The notes under the pieces are model-generated. The model was not told the origin of the DNA. It searched no databases and worked only from the letters and a program-made list of their open reading frames with translations. A stretch of 64,000 bases of DNA from a virus. The stretch lies in the IMG/VR virus record IMGVR_UViG_3300020731_000774, positions 1 through 64,000 of that record. One strand, 5' to 3'. This document shows positions 17,080-31,538 of this stretch, piece by piece. How positions within the stretch are numbered: position 1 is the first letter of the stretch; each line of letters begins with the position of its first letter. A program made the position numbers and the translations under genes.

Positions 17080-18942
17080 TTAATTTTTAAGTATTACTGG
17101 TGTTGCTGATGGTTCTTGGCTCAATGTTGGTGCAAATGTACCAACTGATGTTAATTGTGCCACAATTGATTTACCATCATCACTTAAATTTTTAACATAT
17201 ATTAAAAATTCATTGTTATCCTTATCCTTAACTCTATAAATATCACTAATAGTGTAAATGCTATTTGGTAGTACTGGTGTTGGTGCTGGATTTTCATTTA
17301 CTTTTGCATTTTTATCAGGATCTTTAGTTTCTAATTTTTCATTTGCATTTATTTCAGCTGGTGTTTTACCTAATTCTTTTCTAACTAAGCGAACTTCTTG
17401 ATAAAAATGTGTACCATCAAATATAAAAGATATATCTGCTATTATCCAATCTCCACTATTTCGCCATTCAATACGTTCACGATTTGTTATTGAATTCTCA
17501 GCATTTATTACCTTTACGTTTACCTTTTGGAATTTATATAAATTAAAGTTTGTATTTGGTAATATTATTTTTAGTTCTAATTTTTGTAAATCTATTAAAT
17601 TGCGTCTATTTTGTGTATAAGCATATGTGTAATTACTATGTGTATTATCAGTATCTATTTTACCATTATTTTGTGTTGTGTAGCTATTTTCAAAATCTTC
17701 CTTATCCATCTTACTACCTTTTAATATGATGGTTTTATTATCATCAGATGTTTGAGAATCTACATCAAATACCTCAAAAGTTTTATTTAATCTATTATAT
17801 GATTTTGTTATTGTCCTATTACCAACAGCTTTAGTGACAGCAGTTGCATTATTTTTTAATTTTTTATCACTTTCAAAATAGAATGCACTTTTATTCATTG
17901 ATTCTTCATTTATTAATTGTAGTTTAACAATCTTTGATATATCATCTTTTTGATCTACACCAGTTTCTATACCAACATCAGATGTATTATCTCTTTTACT
18001 TTCTTTCTCAACATCAACATAATTAAAACAATAATAGAAATCAATATATCCAACCATAAATGATTTATCAGATATATATGAGTAATTTATAATCTCTGTT
18101 ATAGTCTCAAATGTTTTACTACCATTGAAACGCCAAACCATAGTATCATTTGTGGAAGTTATATTTGAATTAAAACCAAGACCCATATCTTTACTGATTT
18201 GTCTCAAAACTTCAAATGACGATCCTTTCATACTACCATTATATAAACGATATAAATTAGATACATCCAATGTACCAATCACATTATACAATCCACCATT
18301 TACTTCTTTGAAGTTTTCTACTTTGAATTTTAAGTGTATAGATTTTAAACTATTTGATCTTGCATTAATAAATAAATCAAATTTAGTATCTGCTTGTGGA
18401 GCACCTATTGTTTTAATAAAATTTTGGGAATCAACAAAACTAAATCTAACCTTAGGGACTATTCCCTCATGGTATAATTTTAAATTTAAAATATCTCTAT
18501 CCTGTATAGGATTTCCAGACCAACTAATGAAAGGCAACATACCAACACTTGATGTAACCAATGTATTTGTTTGATCATTATCATCCTTTTGTATTTGTAT
18601 TGGTGGTATCTTAATAGTTGGTATGTCAATTTGTGCTATTATTGGCCTTGTCCCACTTATATTGGTATTATCATCCTTGCCTCTTGATTCATCCTGACCT
18701 ATTATTGTAGGTGCTGGTGTAACAGTTATTTTAAATTGTGTTGGTTCAACATCAGGTGAAGTACTTGTAACTGATACTACATAATCACCTGGTTGGTCAA
18801 ATTGAATACCAGATACTACTACAGCATTAGGTATTTTATCACCTATAACTATTTCGGTTTCACCTATTAATTCACCAGGTCCACTTACTTTTTTGAGTAT
18901 TAGTTTACCGGATATTGTTGATGGATCTATTGTTGTTGCCAT
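17080..18942 (-). CDS. Putative baseplate hub (gp27-like) protein
   Basis: C-terminal N.NL...QKV.V...SGDWII.DI.F pattern; upstream of the gp5-like gene. Confidence 0.5.
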   Translation of the reverse strand: MATTIDPSTISGKLILKKVSGPGELIGETEIVIGDKIPNAVVVSGIQFDQPGDYVVSVTSTSPDVEPTQFKITVTPAPTIIGQDESRGKDDNTNISGTRPIIAQIDIPTIKIPPIQIQKDDNDQTNTLVTSSVGMLPFISWSGNPIQDRDILNLKLYHEGIVPKVRFSFVDSQNFIKTIGAPQADTKFDLFINARSNSLKSIHLKFKVENFKEVNGGLYNVIGTLDVSNLYRLYNGSMKGSSFEVLRQISKDMGLGFNSNITSTNDTMVWRFNGSKTFETITEIINYSYISDKSFMVGYIDFYYCFNYVDVEKESKRDNTSDVGIETGVDQKDDISKIVKLQLINEESMNKSAFYFESDKKLKNNATAVTKAVGNRTITKSYNRLNKTFEVFDVDSQTSDDNKTIILKGSKMDKEDFENSYTTQNNGKIDTDNTHSNYTYAYTQNRRNLIDLQKLELKIILPNTNFNLYKFQKVNVKVINAENSITNRERIEWRNSGDWIIADISFIFDGTHFYQEVRLVRKELGKTPAEINANEKLETKDPDKNAKVNENPAPTPVLPNSIYTISDIYRVKDKDNNEFLIYVKNLSDDGKSIVAQLTSVGTFAPTLSQEPSATPVILKN

Positions 18943-18977
18943 AGTATTTTAATTTTAATAATTTATATATTAAAACC

Positions 18978-19166
18978 TTAATTTTCCGATAAGATATTGT
19001 TTATTTTTTTATCCCTGAAATCAATAATTATTTCTTTATTTAAAATATCAACCAAACTAACATCATCATTATTTGATAAAATATTAAAAATGTTTTCACA
19101 AGTATAATCAGTTACAATATTTTTATATACTATAAAACCATTTTCATTTATAATTAAATCACTCAT
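18978..19166 (-). CDS. Small protein with RDxKI motif
   Basis: FRDKKINNIL at the C-terminus; overlaps the UvsW-C stop. Confidence 0.5.
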   Translation of the reverse strand: MSDLIINENGFIVYKNIVTDYTCENIFNILSNNDDVSLVDILNKEIIIDFRDKKINNILSEN

Positions 19167-19502
19167 AAATTTAATTTCAATATTTTAAATGGATATTTTC
19201 GTTTCACATAAAATCCCTCCCTCTCTTTATAATGTCTAAATAGTGCATTGGTCATATCATTCGGATCAAATATATCTACTAAGTCAAAAATAGTTGCTTT
19301 ATCCTTTAAAAAATGGAGCCTTAAGGACCTCCCCACACTTTGGATAATTATCTGCTCACTCTTAAATGAATCTGCGAATATTACGTTAAATATTGCATTT
19401 ATTGACACACCTGTTGATAATGTACCGTCAATATGAGGCAACTAAAACTTTAGTTGCCCCTTCTTCTCTAATTTCTTCTCTTTTGTCTATTATTCTAGCC
19501 AT
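19163..19502 (-). CDS. uvsW: UvsW-like helicase, C-terminal subunit, interrupted by a 4-nt TGAC insertion
   Basis: ATG at 19502 gives MARIIDKREEIREEGATKVLVASY-TGA; the +1 frame continues GTLSTGVSIN...QSVGRSLR (motifs V and VI). Confidence 0.85.
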
Positions 19503-20461
19503 TAGTATTTTATTGTTTTTATTATAGAATCTAATAAAATATAATTATTTTCATTTAAATGATTTATTGAAACTTTATTATCAGTGTCTCTATATTTTCT
19601 TATTAGATGAGTGCTGAATTTATATTTTTTAACTATATCCTCCATATTTTCAAAAACTTCAACATCTCCGTTATTTTTTATTATTTCTATTTTTAATCCA
19701 TTTCGCTTTTTGCGATTTTTCATTTTTTCTAAATAATCAGGATCTTCCCATTTCTTCTTTATCTTAATACCGGCATCAATTCTTTTAGTTTCATCTTTGT
19801 TTATTTTATCCATTTTTTCTTTAAAGTTTAGTCGGTATTCTTCATTCATACTATCCCATCTATCTTGTGTTTCTTTTCTTTTCTTTTCAACATTTTCAAA
19901 ATTAGAATAATATTCGCTCATTTGTTTAGATTTCTCTATTCGTTTATCTTCGGTCCAATAACTTTTCATTTTATTACAAAAATCTATATACTCATCATCT
20001 GATATATTATCCCAAAAAATATTAGCTCTCCTTGTTTGTTCTTCTTTAGATATATTTTTCATAAACTCAGATCTACTTTTTCTCCAATTATTATATTTCT
20101 CTGTATCATTTTTTAAGTTGATCCATCCTTTTTTAGCAGCATTTGATGTTTCATAACTATTTTTATAATAATTCATCATCCAGTTTAATGGTCTTTGATA
20201 AGTTCTTATATTTATCGCTTTAAATAACCAAAGATGTACTAAACGATGACTATCATAGTCTAGTTCAATAATATTCCAATATTCGTTTTCAAACTCAGGA
20301 AAAGTAGATCTTGGTAATATGTGGTGTTTTTCAGAATATTCTACACTTTCTGATATTTTATAATTGATTAAAAAGTTAATATATTTATCTAAGTATTCTG
20401 AATTATCAACACTTTCATGTCTTTTTATTAAAGCATCTTTTAAAAAATTATAATCTCTCAT
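19502..20461 (-). CDS. Free-standing HNH homing endonuclease inserted in uvsW
   Basis: EKHHILPRS.FP...N...L....H...H followed by helical K/W-rich repeats; own TAATATATA at 20466-20474. Confidence 0.8.
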   Translation of the reverse strand: MRDYNFLKDALIKRHESVDNSEYLDKYINFLINYKISESVEYSEKHHILPRSTFPEFENEYWNIIELDYDSHRLVHLWLFKAINIRTYQRPLNWMMNYYKNSYETSNAAKKGWINLKNDTEKYNNWRKSRSEFMKNISKEEQTRRANIFWDNISDDEYIDFCNKMKSYWTEDKRIEKSKQMSEYYSNFENVEKKRKETQDRWDSMNEEYRLNFKEKMDKINKDETKRIDAGIKIKKKWEDPDYLEKMKNRKKRNGLKIEIIKNNGDVEVFENMEDIVKKYKFSTHLIRKYRDTDNKVSINHLNENNYILLDSIIKTIKY

Positions 20462-20505
20462 AATGTATATATTATATTAATACTTACTCCTGTTGAAAAA
20501 GTATA

Positions 20506-21948
20506 TTATTTTTTTAGTTTTTCTAAAAAATCATCATCAATATCATCATCTTTATTAATATCCTTTGCTAATTTATATTTACCATTAGATAATAATATTT
20601 GGGTATCTGATTTAACATCTATTTGGAAATTACCAAAATTTAGAATTGTATATTCAACACTTTCTTTGGTTATTTCCATTAGTTTTTTAATTTCTTCTCT
20701 TTTTTTACCACTTACTTCACCATCTATATAATAGAACTCTTTATCTGTTATTTCACTTTTCAATTTATTGAATATTTTTTGACCATTTTCAATAGTATGA
20801 AAAAGTAGTAGAGTATTATTATTACATTTATTAACTAAATTTTTGATAAATTCTAATCTTTTATCAGATTGGTGAATGTATGCTTTTTCAAAATCAAATG
20901 CTGCTTTACCATCTCCGCTTTTCCTGACCAATTTTAATCTTTCATGGAACTCTTTATCATTATGGTTAAGTAATAAAACTTTTATATCCATTGGTGTTAT
21001 AATTCCTTTCTTTTTTAATTCATCTGCACTAACTTCGGTTATTTTCGGACCAAGTACTGATTGTATTGTTAGTATTTCGCAACTATCATCAAGTGGGAAT
21101 GTTCCAGATACACCAAATCTAGAATAGGCATGTCCAAATGTATTTTCCAATATTGTTGTTATGGTCTTTGCTTTAGCACCATGTGATTCGTCAACTGCTA
21201 TTGTATGGAATTGTTGAAAGAATTTTTTAGGCCATTTTTCAAGTGATTGATAAGTACCTATATAAATATTTGGGTTATCAGCACCTGAAAACTTTCTTGG
21301 TTTATCAGACATAACTTCTTCTATTCGTATAGTATTATCTATATTTGATTTATCTTGTAAGTTATTTTCACCATAATAATATTCTAAAAAATTATCATAA
21401 AATTGTGTCACTAAGGTAATTGAGGGAACGATTACGAGAAATTTAGCATCTTTTTTAATGTTTTTTAGAGTATAAAAAGCAACTATTGATATGATCAATG
21501 ATTTACCACCAGAAGTAGCAACCTCTGCCATACAAAAGCGATTTTTTAATATTTTATATGCTGCTTCAATTTGATGATCATAAGGCATGAATGAATTCCA
21601 ACCACCTTCTTTATTTTTAACTTTATGATTTTTAAAAAAATCTTTACAGAAGTCTTGAACTTTTTCAAGTGTTACATCACGATTAATTGGAAAGTCTTCT
21701 TTATTTTCTAGAAGAAAAGGCATTTCAATTTCTTTACATCCTCTCATAGCTTCTTTCCATAGACCTAGATTTATTCTACCATTTTTGAAATGTGGAATAT
21801 TCCCATCCCATATACCAGCTTTAACTAAAGGATGATATTTCCAACCCTTTGGTTTTCTAGTAAGCCAAAGTTCCATTTGGAAATATTCAGTCCTAGTTGC
21901 CTCTGATACAACTAGTTCCTCTTTCTCTTTATCATATCTAAATTTCAT
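20506..21948 (-). CDS. uvsW: UvsW-like SF2 helicase, N-terminal subunit (motifs I-IV)
   Basis: PYDHQ, ATSGGKS, VPS..LV.Q, DESH, SGT, YYIDGEV; ends before motif V with a ~50-aa extension. Confidence 0.9.
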   Translation of the reverse strand: MKFRYDKEKEELVVSEATRTEYFQMELWLTRKPKGWKYHPLVKAGIWDGNIPHFKNGRINLGLWKEAMRGCKEIEMPFLLENKEDFPINRDVTLEKVQDFCKDFFKNHKVKNKEGGWNSFMPYDHQIEAAYKILKNRFCMAEVATSGGKSLIISIVAFYTLKNIKKDAKFLVIVPSITLVTQFYDNFLEYYYGENNLQDKSNIDNTIRIEEVMSDKPRKFSGADNPNIYIGTYQSLEKWPKKFFQQFHTIAVDESHGAKAKTITTILENTFGHAYSRFGVSGTFPLDDSCEILTIQSVLGPKITEVSADELKKKGIITPMDIKVLLLNHNDKEFHERLKLVRKSGDGKAAFDFEKAYIHQSDKRLEFIKNLVNKCNNNTLLLFHTIENGQKIFNKLKSEITDKEFYYIDGEVSGKKREEIKKLMEITKESVEYTILNFGNFQIDVKSDTQILLSNGKYKLAKDINKDDDIDDDFLEKLKK

Positions 21949-22069
21949 TTCATGTTATATATAAAAAATAAATAAATGTTTATTTAAATAAAAAAATATT
22001 ATTTTTTGCTGGTTTTTTATAGAGGGAAGAAGAAAAAAGATATATATACATAAAAAATATTTAAAAATT

Positions 22070-22432
22070 ATGGGATTTATATCATGGCTTAAAGATCTTT
22101 TCAAAAGAGAGCATGAAGTACAAGCAGAAGTTAAAACTATTGCTGAGGAAGTTAAAACGGTTACAGATGAAGCTAAACCAGTTGTTGAAGATGTAAAAGT
22201 AGTTATTGACAAAGTTGAAAAAACTATCAATGAAGAACCAACTGAAAAAATTGTTGAAAGATTAGTTGAGGTTGCTAAGGATGAAAAAGTTACAGCTAAA
22301 GAAATTAAGGCTAAGGCTAAAAGAACTCCTAAACCAAAAACTGAAACACCTACTGAGGTTGCACCTGAGGCTAAAACAGCTCCAAAAAAACCACGTAGAA
22401 AACCATCACCAAAAAAACCAAAAGGTGAATAA
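22070..22432 (+). CDS. Glu/Lys-rich protein with a basic Pro/Lys tail
   Basis: Composition and codon usage support the + strand ORF; terminator follows. Confidence 0.6.
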   Translation: MGFISWLKDLFKREHEVQAEVKTIAEEVKTVTDEAKPVVEDVKVVIDKVEKTINEEPTEKIVERLVEVAKDEKVTAKEIKAKAKRTPKPKTETPTEVAPEAKTAPKKPRRKPSPKKPKGE

Positions 22433-22451
22433 TGTTTGCCAAAACATAAAT

Positions 22452-22483
22452 AAAAAACCACTCAATTTTGAGTGGTTTTTTTT
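22452..22483. terminator. Bidirectional intrinsic terminator
   Basis: AAAAACCACTCA-attt-TGAGTGGTTTTT. Confidence 0.8.
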
Positions 22484-22489
22484 ATTCTT

Positions 22490-23155
22490 TTATTTTAATC
22501 TATAAGATGGATTGAATATGTATATCTCTACTACTAAGTTTTCTAATTGAGATAATTCCTCTAAACCATTTAAATTCAACCACTCATCTATATTTGCTTT
22601 TTTTGGTGGTTGTCCTAGCAATGATACATTACTAGGAATATTACGAGTTACGTTATTAACATTTTTATTTTTATATTTATACGTTAATTGTATTTCAAAA
22701 CCAACATCAATTATCATGAATAATTTACTATAAACCCCTTTGAGATCCATTACAAAATCTTTAAAATCCTTGTAATTAAAATCGGTTAATCCAATTTTAT
22801 ATTCACCTGATGTCAATAGAAATTTTTCATATAAATCATAACTATTATCTATAAATTCCTGAATATAATCTATTACTTCATCTTTAGTTGCATCAATATC
22901 AAATGCTTTAAAAAAAGAATTTGCATCTTGTATAGTGCTACTTGCTTTTTTGATATAATCTTTGTTTACATTTCTAATAAAATCCACTAAATATTGAATA
23001 GTATCTTTAGTAAATAAACTAGGATGTGCTGCTAAAACACTATCTATTAGTGGTTGTATTCTAATATCCCAAAATTCTTTATTAACTAATGGGCTTCTTT
23101 TAAAAGAAGTTTGGTCATACTCATTTGACTCTACTATTTTTGAAAATTTTCTCAT
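22490..23155 (-). CDS. Putative capsid-internal protein (MRKFxKIxES family)
   Basis: N-terminus MRKFSKIVES resembles those of 34581 and 35327. Confidence 0.55.
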   Translation of the reverse strand: MRKFSKIVESNEYDQTSFKRSPLVNKEFWDIRIQPLIDSVLAAHPSLFTKDTIQYLVDFIRNVNKDYIKKASSTIQDANSFFKAFDIDATKDEVIDYIQEFIDNSYDLYEKFLLTSGEYKIGLTDFNYKDFKDFVMDLKGVYSKLFMIIDVGFEIQLTYKYKNKNVNNVTRNIPSNVSLLGQPPKKANIDEWLNLNGLEELSQLENLVVEIYIFNPSYRLK

Positions 23156-30062: not shown

Positions 30063-31538
30063 TCATTTTTTAGAAACCTTTCCAAATCCACCAAATATAT
30101 CCTGTATAACTGATAATCTTTCTGTAATTTCTGGCATACCCAATGGTTCAATAATTGTATTGATTGGTGATAAAATAGATTTAGCAAATTGTATATCATA
30201 ATCTATTTCAGGTGCTACCTCAATAGGTAATGATCCCCTAATATAGGCAAATATATCACCATTTTTCTTATTCTTACAATAATAATACTTAATCTTTGTC
30301 CCAGACTTAATAAATTCATATCGTGTTTGTAACTCCTTATTCTGTTTCAATAAATAATTATGATATGCACTTGCTTTAACTGCAAAGTGAGCACCATTAA
30401 CAAACTTTAATGGCAATGAATTATCATCAATTACCTTAGTATCATAATTAGAACAAGATGATTGCATTGAAATATCATCAATATCAGCTAACTCAAATTC
30501 CTTTCTAAGATTCTTAACCAATTTTAATAAGTCCTTTATGTTAAAGGTATCAGAATTCTCAAATAAATATTTAACAATTGTGATAATCTTTTCCCTTGCA
30601 AATAAAGGTGTGGAAGATCTTACCAATTCAACTCCCTTTGGAAATAAATATGTTAACCTATCGTAATTTATACCATCCTCAAATGAAACATGTTGAATAT
30701 ATTTCTTTTTTGCCAAACTGATAACCGATTCTGATATACGTTCTAACTCAAAATCTTGTCTGTTCTCAACACCATATAAATCACCATAATCTACTAAACA
30801 CTTTTTAAAATATCCACCATATCTGAAATGGTCTATACCTTGGATATAATCCAATTCTTTACACCAATTCCATTTAGGTTTAACCGTTAATGCACCATTA
30901 TTTATTAAATCATTTAAACCATAATCCTTAACAAATACACCATCAATTAAAACCAAATCATATTCTAATGTTAATAACTTCTCAAATTCATCAACAGTTT
31001 TAGAAATACCTAAACAATTTGGATTATTAAAACTTGGAAGTTCATTTGATAAAATGATAAATTTCTTACCAATGGAATTTAACATATTCGTGTTGAATAT
31101 TAAATTCTTCCATTCTGAATGTCGAATTGCTGGTTCAAATGACACAAAAAGAGAATCTGTGTCCGCGTAAATACTTACATTTTCATCCTCATTAATTTTA
31201 CTAACATTTTTTATACATAAATTCTTATGTAATTCAACATCTAGATGCCATTGATTGTGCCAATAATCTTTATTAACCTTATCCATTGTTTGTGTAAGCT
31301 GCCTACCTTGTGCAGTTATACTTCCAGCAACCGCATTATTATATAATACGAAGTAGGAAGCTGCCATCGCTCCGTAAGAACCGTTCAATACTAATTTTAG
31401 TCTTTTACCCCCAATACATTGTATTGGGGGCTACAAAAGAGCGAGCTGAAGGGCATTGTAATAGTCTGCCTCCTTCTTTAGCTCGCTCGCTTGTTTTTTT
31501 AAAGACTCGATCTTTAATTTTTTTTCTTCTCTAGTCAT
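30063..31538 (-). CDS. Family B DNA polymerase, C-terminal subunit (gp43B-like), with an in-frame 39-nt stop-containing insertion in motif B
   Basis: ATG at 31538 gives MTREE...YYNALQLAL[L*PPIQCIGGKRL]KLVLNGSYG; downstream ITAQGR, YADTDS, KKKY, KGVELVRSSTP. Confidence 0.9.
31401..31493 (-). other. Tandem RNA hairpins around the internal TAG of polB (candidate recoding/bypass element)
   Basis: GAGCGAGCT...AGCTCGCTC stem upstream; TCTTTT-GTAG-CCCCCAATAC-AAT-GTATTGGGGG-T-AAAAGA downstream. Confidence 0.8.

Follow-up and report, generated by a model that had tools for sequence, protein, structure and literature searches.

This study focused on a split helicase gene in a stretch of viral DNA of 64,000 nucleotides (nt), which comprises positions 1 to 64,000 of the IMG/VR record IMGVR_UViG_3300020731_000774 and is referred to below as the window; all of the window genes described here lie on its minus strand. 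Judged by family matches and alignment, the gene is uvsW, encoding the SF2 helicase of T4-like phages, and it appears to have been split in this phage by a cassette carrying a Mob-type homing endonuclease. The C-terminal half of the helicase is probably produced by programmed translational bypassing, in which the ribosome would hop over a coding gap of 4 nt, TGAC (19427..19430), that lies within the cassette. A gap at the same point recurs in 55 distinct sequences, among which the gap varies in length independently of reading frame, the hairpin preceding it shows covariation, and the reading frames on both sides are under selection.

The coding gap, its alleles and the flanking reading frames

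In the window, a leader open reading frame (ORF) of 24 codons (19431..19502) belonging to the uvsW C gene translates as MARIIDKREEIREEGATKVLVASY and ends in VLVASY, the last codon, TAT (Tyr24, 19431..19433), being the proposed take-off codon. The gap that follows consists of a TGA stop (19430-19428), which would occupy the A site at take-off, and a C (19427), and its last three bases, GAC (19429-19427), form the proposed landing triplet. From 19426 the downstream frame reads GGT ACA TTA TCA ACA GGT (GTLSTG, motif V), with GGT as the resume codon, and it stays open for 87 codons, to 19166; with its stop, this ORF (19163..19426) covers motifs V and VI and the C-terminal tail, and its product matches a PHROG DNA helicase family. 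At the aligned position T4 UvsW (PDB 2oca_A) reads IIVASYGVFSTG, uninterrupted. An unsplit relative (L002; L-numbers are labels of relative loci or contigs) is 78% identical to the window in the N half and 85% in the C half, and aligns with 2oca_A with E = 8e-44, VASYGVFSTG included (...VRVLVASFGTLSTGVSINAI against ...IIIVASYGVFSTGISVKNL), which puts TGAC precisely at the boundary of the Tyr/Phe and the Gly in motif V. A preliminary description of this DNA had located TGAC between TAT and GGT, in an ORF coupled to the stop of an HNH gene, and had given T4 UvsW as contiguous VASYGVFSTG at this point; the coordinates, the frames and the T4 sequence were all found to be as described.

The TGAC insert is real. 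The contig stems from a metagenome assembly, which could suggest a sequencing or assembly error, but this reading is already refuted by independent assemblies and by the relatives. Logan contigs from four runs belonging to four studies (2016-2025) cover 19427-19430, and all four keep TGAC without any indel, including two that represent diverged strains and differ by 12 and 16 substitutions over the compared stretch; inserts of the same type also occur at the identical codon boundary throughout the 55 distinct sequences. Strain substitutions that were decoded near the site (19424, 19421 and 19417-19415) are synonymous in the downstream frame, one of them being a change of Ser codon from TCA to AGC.

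A protein search with the 87-residue C part returned 80 loci, most of them unsplit and reading VL[VI]AS[FY]-G[TC]L; none of the unsplit homologues has an insertion between [FY] and G. The 55 distinct gap-bearing sequences comprise the gap-bearing split loci of that search together with 53 of 64 matches obtained by scanning metagenome contigs with a DNA pattern. They were drawn from viral and metagenome collections, and each has the same leader ORF, an insert, and then GGN ACN. The gap is 4 nt long in ten alleles (TGAC, TAAC), 5 nt in three (TAGAC, TGAAT), 6 nt in one (TAGTAA, which is in frame and contains two stops), 7 nt in 32 (including TGAGTAC, TGAGGAC, TGAGTAG and TAAGTAT), 8 nt in five (TAGAGAAC, TAGAGGAT, TGAAGAAC, TGAGGGAC), 9 nt in one (TGAGGCTAA), 10 nt in two (TGAGGTTAAC, TGAGGTTTAT) and 17 nt in one (TGAGCCCCAGGGAGTAA; L070, contig IMGVR_UViG_3300013126_004149). 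The last triplet of the gap is always N-A-N (GAC, AAC, TAC, TAT, GAT, AAT, TAA or TAG), and a Tyr anticodon of the GUA type could make two or three pairs with any of these; of 51 alleles, 14 end in cognate TAC or TAT and the others match at two positions of three, with competing triplets present inside some gaps. Shine-Dalgarno-like GAGG or AGGA was found in the gap of only 18 of the 55 alleles and so is not a general element.

A maximum-likelihood tree of 51 sequences was built from the flanks only, using 231 nt (the 72 nt of the leader and the first 159 nt downstream), and these flanking coding bases contain no indel in any of the 51. On this tree the gap changed in length at least 17 times and in length modulo 3 at least eight times, while the last triplet changed at least 29 times with its middle A invariant. 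Forms in which the gap is missing are rare. One locus (L041) is split like the window and has no insert (MARIVDKRKEIREEGTTKVLVASYGTLSTG), and a directed pattern search of IMG/VR for further split but gapless alleles found none beyond one contig (L041/L201). In another (L052) the two halves are re-fused in frame, and both it and L041 read contiguous ...TKVLVASYGTLSTG.

Just upstream of the gap lies a hairpin of 11 bp with a 4-nt loop (hairpin 1, 19435..19460), a putative stimulator whose 3' arm ends 1 nt 5' of the take-off codon. The preliminary description had predicted it from the window, where it forms part of the minimum-energy fold (z = -3.3), and it proved to be conserved and covarying in relatives. 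It corresponds to leader alignment columns 43-53 paired with 58-68, in which 98.3% of cells are paired. The pair 48-63 joins the third positions of an Ala and a Val codon, both synonymous, and is GC in 22 distinct sequences, AU in 17, GU in seven and UA in two, without a mismatch; hairpin 1 thus shows compensatory synonymous changes. It was also the sole consensus structure returned by RNAalifold for a 142-nt alignment across the gap; no conserved structure was found at or 3' of the gap, which is too short for a take-off stem-loop of its own. The strength of hairpin 1 is tied to the presence of the gap: over a segment of 30 nt, 54 gap-bearing alleles average a minimum free energy (MFE) of -17.5 kcal/mol and 48 unsplit ones -2.2 kcal/mol, and the same segment gives -7.9 kcal/mol in the split but gapless L041 and -3.4 kcal/mol in the re-fused L052. 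A second hairpin that had been described, hairpin 2 (19433-19400), is likewise present in the minimum-energy fold of the window but is not conserved in relatives, and by eye most of it is possible in only one of the five other TGAC alleles of the alignment. With hairpin 2 absent from the consensus structure, the earlier argument from the pairing of the inserted bases falls. As a functional element hairpin 2 (UAUUGAC/GUCAAUA) was rejected, and it was treated as a by-product of the codons GTG-TCA-ATA.

Both ORFs are, on the evidence of their substitution patterns, under purifying selection, which points to translation on both sides of the gap. In pairwise comparisons the leader has a ratio of nonsynonymous to synonymous substitution rates (dN/dS) of 0.09, and the downstream part one of 0.11. 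The downstream ORF is intact, with no stop, in all 55 relatives. The leader has no indels over 51 sequences and a mean column identity of 87%, its peptide being strongly conserved, although part of this conservation is explained by homology to UvsW. Pairs of relatives in which the cassette and its flanks have diverged together are particularly informative. Between L143 (TAAC) and L159 (TAGAGAAC), dS is about 0.55 in the endonuclease, the N half and the C half alike, with a C-half dN/dS of 0.06, so one lineage must have switched frame class while selection continued. Between L159 and L199, both with 8-nt gaps, dS is 0.30 in the endonuclease and 0.42 in the C half, again with a C-half dN/dS of 0.06. 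Over the co-diverging pairs, downstream dN/dS ranges from 0.03 to 0.07. A relative of 249 kb, rated 90% complete, carries a single uvsW C part and no second copy.

A probable short ribosome hop and the competing explanations

The comparative data support recoding at UAU-UGA-C, as had been proposed in the preliminary description, and of the two routes named there, a +1 shift and a 4-nt micro-hop, they favour the hop. After reading the leader the ribosome would pause, its P site holding UAU with peptidyl-tRNA-Tyr and its A site UGA. The tRNA would then release its codon, the mRNA would slide forward by 4 nt (4-17 nt in relatives), and the tRNA would re-pair on a near-cognate N-A-N triplet, GAC in the window, so that decoding would resume at GGU and yield ...VLVASY-GTLSTG..., with the spacing of unsplit UvsW. 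The predicted tryptic junction peptide of such a product is VLVASYGTLSTGVSINAIFNVIFADSFK, and that of a +1 product would be the same with D after Y. Hairpin 1, which is rich in GC, would be melted at take-off, its 3' arm lying in the mRNA exit path and its 5' arm already outside the ribosome, and its re-zipping behind the ribosome may pull the mRNA forward by a few bases, which would fit hops of 4-10 nt. Pairing of the exiting mRNA has been proposed as a driver of forward bypassing in T4 gene 60 (bioRxiv 10.1101/2024.12.09.627546).

The alternative of programmed +1 frameshifting at UAU-UGA-C, with GAC read as Asp to give ...VLVASY-D-GTLSTG..., is considered unlikely. Frameshifting of the +1 type, as in prfB, classically involves a stop in the A site and a stimulator close by on the 5' side; the allele of the window is compatible with such a shift, and 44 of the 55 alleles (80%) have gaps of 4, 7 or 10 nt, that is 1 modulo 3, with the +1 frame through the gap open in most of them. 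Against this, gaps of 5, 6, 8, 9 and 17 nt lead to the wrong frame or are blocked by stops, and TGAGTAG has a stop in the +1 frame. In the 13 of 55 alleles that a +1 shift could not rescue, the leader, hairpin and downstream ORF are nevertheless intact and the endonuclease is often still present, and it would have to be supposed that alleles of other gap length use something else or are defective. Nor is there a Shine-Dalgarno-like element 5' of the site, where the hairpin arm GCCUCA is found instead. The analogy with prfB that had been drawn fails both on re-pairing, since a move from UAU to AUU allows no pairing, and on constancy of frame. A fixed +1 shift fails because gap length modulo 3 has switched repeatedly on the tree while both flanking ORFs stayed intact (dN/dS ~0.1). 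For TGAC itself the hop is favoured because close, co-diverging relatives switch among 4-, 5- and 8-nt gaps, because a Tyr tRNA cannot re-pair on AUU (nor on ACU) and would form two pairs on GAC, because no homologue of any kind, whether unsplit, split but gapless, or re-fused, tolerates an extra residue between [FY] and G, and because of the 13 alleles that are unable to use a +1 shift.

It could also be that the C part is made separately from the leader, by an independent start or by re-initiation after the UGA. In the window a TTG at 19441 opens the downstream frame five codons before GGT, and TTG is found there in 27 of the 55 relatives as well; the preliminary description had raised initiation at this TTG as something that might fully account for function. 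It is not a general start, however, since 28 of the 55 have no ATG, GTG or TTG in that frame before GGN, and in five alleles a stop directly precedes GGN in the downstream frame. The TTG itself arises from the synonymous choice GTT-GCC and lies inside a stable hairpin, and its product would lose the VLVAS strand that is kept in the contiguous natural forms. Separate initiation is therefore judged very improbable. Just as improbable is the view that the cassette inactivated the C part of uvsW and that the downstream ORF is a recent pseudogene whose conservation dates from before the invasion. The uvsW gene is non-essential in T4, and horizontal movement of the cassette (as between L195 and L180, see below) would suit this idea, yet none of the 55 downstream ORFs is disrupted, lineages without the endonuclease still keep the leader, hairpin, gap syntax and ORF, the strong hairpin is maintained only with the gap, the low downstream dN/dS is seen in pairs that diverged with their cassette, and the sole uvsW C copy of the 90%-complete genome is of this kind. 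Also rejected were an alternative genetic code, with TGA or TAG read as sense, which would leave the frame unrestored wherever the gap length is not a multiple of three and would meet TAA in the 6- and 9-nt gaps, and transcriptional slippage, as the gaps contain no homopolymer run.

Programmed bypassing is thus the preferred reading, and a number of points weigh against it. For the TGAC allele taken alone the sequence cannot separate ASY-GT from ASY-D-GT. The predominance of gaps that are 1 modulo 3 could reflect descent from a 7-nt ancestor, and it could also reflect a +1 shift in most alleles, including that of the window; many alleles may take a +1 route, perhaps beside hopping. The landing rule is loose, since UAA and UAG stops and some internal triplets fit it too (such as UAA one base before AAC in TGAGGTTAAC), although such alternative landings would be unproductive, and the pairing was argued for a GUA-type Tyr anticodon, which may not represent the tRNA-Tyr of the host. 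The counts of change are rough because the 231-nt tree is short and poorly resolved. A Tyr codon (TAT or TAC) at take-off and a stop (TGA, TAA or TAG) directly 3' of it were found in 55 of 55 alleles, partly by design, because the metagenome scan pattern demanded TAY and then T-R-R; the gap-bearing loci of the protein-based search, which had no such TAY constraint, likewise have TAY and a stop. Finally, part of the purifying signal downstream may predate the arrival of the cassette, because the cassette is mobile, an objection that the co-diverging pairs appear to answer.

The homing-endonuclease cassette and the phage that carries it

Upstream of the leader, the window carries the two other components of the split locus. 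The N-terminal gene of uvsW (20506..21948; 480 amino acids, aa) encodes the UvsW N domain and helicase motifs I-IV, matching Pfam ResIII/DEAD, more weakly UvsW_N, and a PHROG DNA helicase family, and it ends in a C-terminal extension (CTE) borne by the cassette. The CTE (20509..20658, about residues 431-480, VEYTILNFG...DDDIDDDF...) stands in place of the host strand VxVLVAS[FY]G. It is conserved in all split relatives examined and survives in L052 as an in-frame insertion in the re-fused helicase, and its role is perhaps in the docking of the two halves, which would have to assemble into a helicase. By eye, the CTE resembles the last strands of a Hint domain (..ILLSNGKYKLAKDI..DDDI). Between the two parts of uvsW lies a free-standing gene for a Mob-type HNH homing endonuclease of 319 aa (19502..20461), which matches PHROG 12434 (HNH endonuclease) and 655 (homing endonuclease) and has, by tblastn, distant similarity to MobD-like and MobE genes of T4-like phages. 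Its TAA stop (19504-19502) overlaps the ATG (19502-19500) of the leader ORF as TAATG. The leader begins with an N-terminal extension (NTE), MARIID, followed by a cassette copy of host sequence, KREEIREEGATKVLVASY, in which KREEI...VLVASY duplicates host KREEI...VLVAS[FY]. The order of the cassette is therefore CTE on the N half, HNH gene, MARIID extension, host-sequence copy up to VLVASY, and gap.

Full-length homologues of the endonuclease lie directly 5' of the leader ORF in 24 distinct relatives, with remnants or loss elsewhere, and the enzyme has a dN/dS of about 0.3 between relatives. Many lineages have no endonuclease left, and in them the leader, the hairpin and the gap syntax persist and the downstream ORF is intact. 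The endonuclease genes of L195 and L180 are identical, with flanks that differ at dS 0.24-0.45, indicating recent homing, and some pairs have identical leader ORFs with a downstream dS above 2. With most relatives unsplit, these pairs show horizontal spread of the cassette into cassette-free alleles. The cassettes of L195 and L180 are identical and only the last three bases of the gap differ (GAC and TAC), pointing to TGAG as the end of the cassette and to the host's own Tyr codon as the source of the landing triplet. By analogy with T4 gene 60/mobA, the gap may interrupt the target of the endonuclease and so protect the genome that carries it. The preliminary description had raised the possibility that the HNH enzyme cuts the allele lacking TGAC, which would suit the layout of the cassette.

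Other kinds of intervening element were considered and rejected. An intein or split intein is contradicted by the lack of any Hint or intein Pfam match in either half (E <= 0.1) and by the absence of a junction Cys or Ser and of an HN motif in the C half. The same Pfam search does detect a genuine split intein elsewhere, in uvsW of L070. There (contig positions 1403-3897) the split intein makes a further break, in the motif II region, in the uvsW gene that has the 17-nt gap: one ORF ends, and the next begins, with Hint/Intein_splicing matches, and between the intein halves lies a gene for a TnsA-like, restriction-fold endonuclease, a 'fractured gene' arrangement. As to a group I or II intron, an Rfam E-value scan of 18500-22500 gave chance-level hits only, with no intron or known recoding element, and the halves of uvsW are merely ~10 nt apart in some relatives, which also counts against an intron.

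The window is probably part of a very large freshwater phage genome. The contig has a completeness rating of 12%, the public runs in which its sequence occurs are freshwater or lake metagenomes, and the nearest GenBank records, in distant and protein search modes, are uncultured phages of 634-735 kb in which uvsW is apparently unsplit; megablast of the locus against GenBank phages gave no match. A search of the window for tRNA genes, such as a special tRNA-Tyr, found none, a result of little weight since the contig is only ~12% of the genome, and there was no RNA dataset among the public runs listed as holding the locus. Downstream, a 62-codon ORF (18978-19166) overlaps the stop of the uvsW C gene as ATGA; it has no significant family match and lies in what we take to be the position of uvsW.1 in T4.

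Known recoding systems and the wider significance

The closest parallel is the mobA/gene 60 cassette of T4, which, as reported from Bonocora et al. (2011) in bioRxiv 10.1101/2022.08.31.505936, split the large subunit of topoisomerase II into genes 39 and 60. That preprint, by Manning and Atkins, describes for it a Mob-family HNH gene, a CTE, an NTE and a host-homologous region, as well as decay of the endonuclease with the gap kept, rare loss of the gap, and secondary fusion. The likeness extends to all of these features: a Mob-family HNH enzyme splits a replication gene, the first ORF carries a conserved CTE, the second an NTE and a cassette copy of host sequence, the endonuclease has frequently decayed with the gap kept, and gap loss or re-fusion of the ORFs is rare. 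In both, moreover, the gap opens with a stop right after the take-off codon, inside an invariant motif, and the landing triplet, in uvsW a putative one, would resemble the codon left at take-off, if often loosely. The differences are equally clear. The host gene here is uvsW rather than a topoisomerase gene, take-off would be from Tyr instead of Gly or Asp, the leader has only 24 codons, and the landing triplet is often only a two-of-three match. Whereas the gene 60 gap is ~50 nt long, that of uvsW is highly variable at 4-17 nt and cannot contain a stem-loop, and a strong, conserved 5' hairpin is found instead, while the 5' stem-loop is not conserved among gene 60 homologues. Bypassing in uvsW is, besides, a proposal drawn from sequence. 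What would be new relative to gene 60 is thus the other host gene, the tiny and variable gap, and the 5' hairpin.

A candidate short bypass has been reported in the gene for terminase in Streptomyces phage Hau3, which has two 10-nt inserts starting with UUA, and a bypass-consistent junction peptide was seen in E. coli for a UAA variant (PMC10732093). Common to Hau3 and uvsW are short, frame-disrupting inserts in a phage gene that homologues lack, an A site occupied at take-off by a codon that is slow to decode, and a 5' stem-loop proposed as stimulator. The Hau3 inserts, however, start with a rare sense codon and were proposed to be regulatory, and they are of fixed length, occur in very few genomes and are not associated with a homing-endonuclease cassette, whereas the uvsW gap begins with a true stop, differs in length among dozens of lineages and is part of a mobile cassette. 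The synthetic 'stop-hops' of E. coli are inefficient and not natural, and the bypass elements in the mitochondria of Magnusiomyces capitatus measure 27-55 nt and are apparently context-independent (review PMC5009743). Both resemble the proposed process in that, independently of frame, a peptidyl-tRNA passes over a stop or unused codon and lands on one that is similar, and the M. capitatus cases in that two-of-three pairing is tolerated at landing. With prfB, the uvsW site shares UGA-C in the A site at the shift point; it differs in having no slippery P-site codon and no Shine-Dalgarno sequence 3 nt upstream, and in a frame relation that varies among homologues.

The same window contains a candidate for a second cassette, in the C-terminal gene of PolB. 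A leader ORF from 31537 (MTREEKK...YYNALQLALL) is followed there by a 39-nt insert (31401-31439) that starts with a TAG stop, holds a CCCCC...GGGGG hairpin and precedes KLVLNGSYGA (motif B). In relatives this site is either insert-free or carries inserts of 36-46 nt, not multiples of three, each of which has a stop near its start and a hairpin rich in GC (MFE -18 to -31 kcal/mol) and is bounded by CTT...CTA Leu codons. From its sequence, the PolB insert looks like a second bypass cassette, one more similar to that of gene 60.

Efficient programmed bypassing has rested for decades essentially on T4 gene 60 and its topoisomerase homologues. A review of recoding in 2016 stated that shorter counterparts of gene 60 had "long been presumed" and not found, and that no natural in-frame stop-hop was known (PMC5009743), and a survey in 2022 called the gene 60 cassette unique (bioRxiv 10.1101/2022.08.31.505936). 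In the literature searched, no paper links UvsW with bypassing, and the recent work on bypassing in phages comprises gene 60 studies and the Hau3 terminase candidate only. The present observations lean towards the view that large freshwater phages carry an unrecognised family of micro-bypass cassettes borne by homing endonucleases, in which re-zipping of a hairpin where the mRNA leaves the ribosome would drive frame-independent hops of 4-17 nt by peptidyl-tRNA-Tyr, some of them in-frame stop-hops as at TAGTAA, and that their genomes also hold the gene 60-like PolB insert of about 40 nt with its hairpin. TAGTAA (6 nt) and TGAGGCTAA (9 nt) would then be candidate natural in-frame stop-hops. Dozens of natural alleles at one site, in which gap length, stop and landing triplet vary and a single covarying 5' hairpin is common, would provide a ready-made allelic series for two questions, namely what drives the forward sliding of mRNA and how the landing site is chosen. 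The idea of an untranslatable insert in an endonuclease's own target would also be extended to another gene and to little-studied, very large phages. If this view is true, mobile elements would have in bypassing a recurrent means of occupying essential motifs, and it would not be a curiosity of T4.

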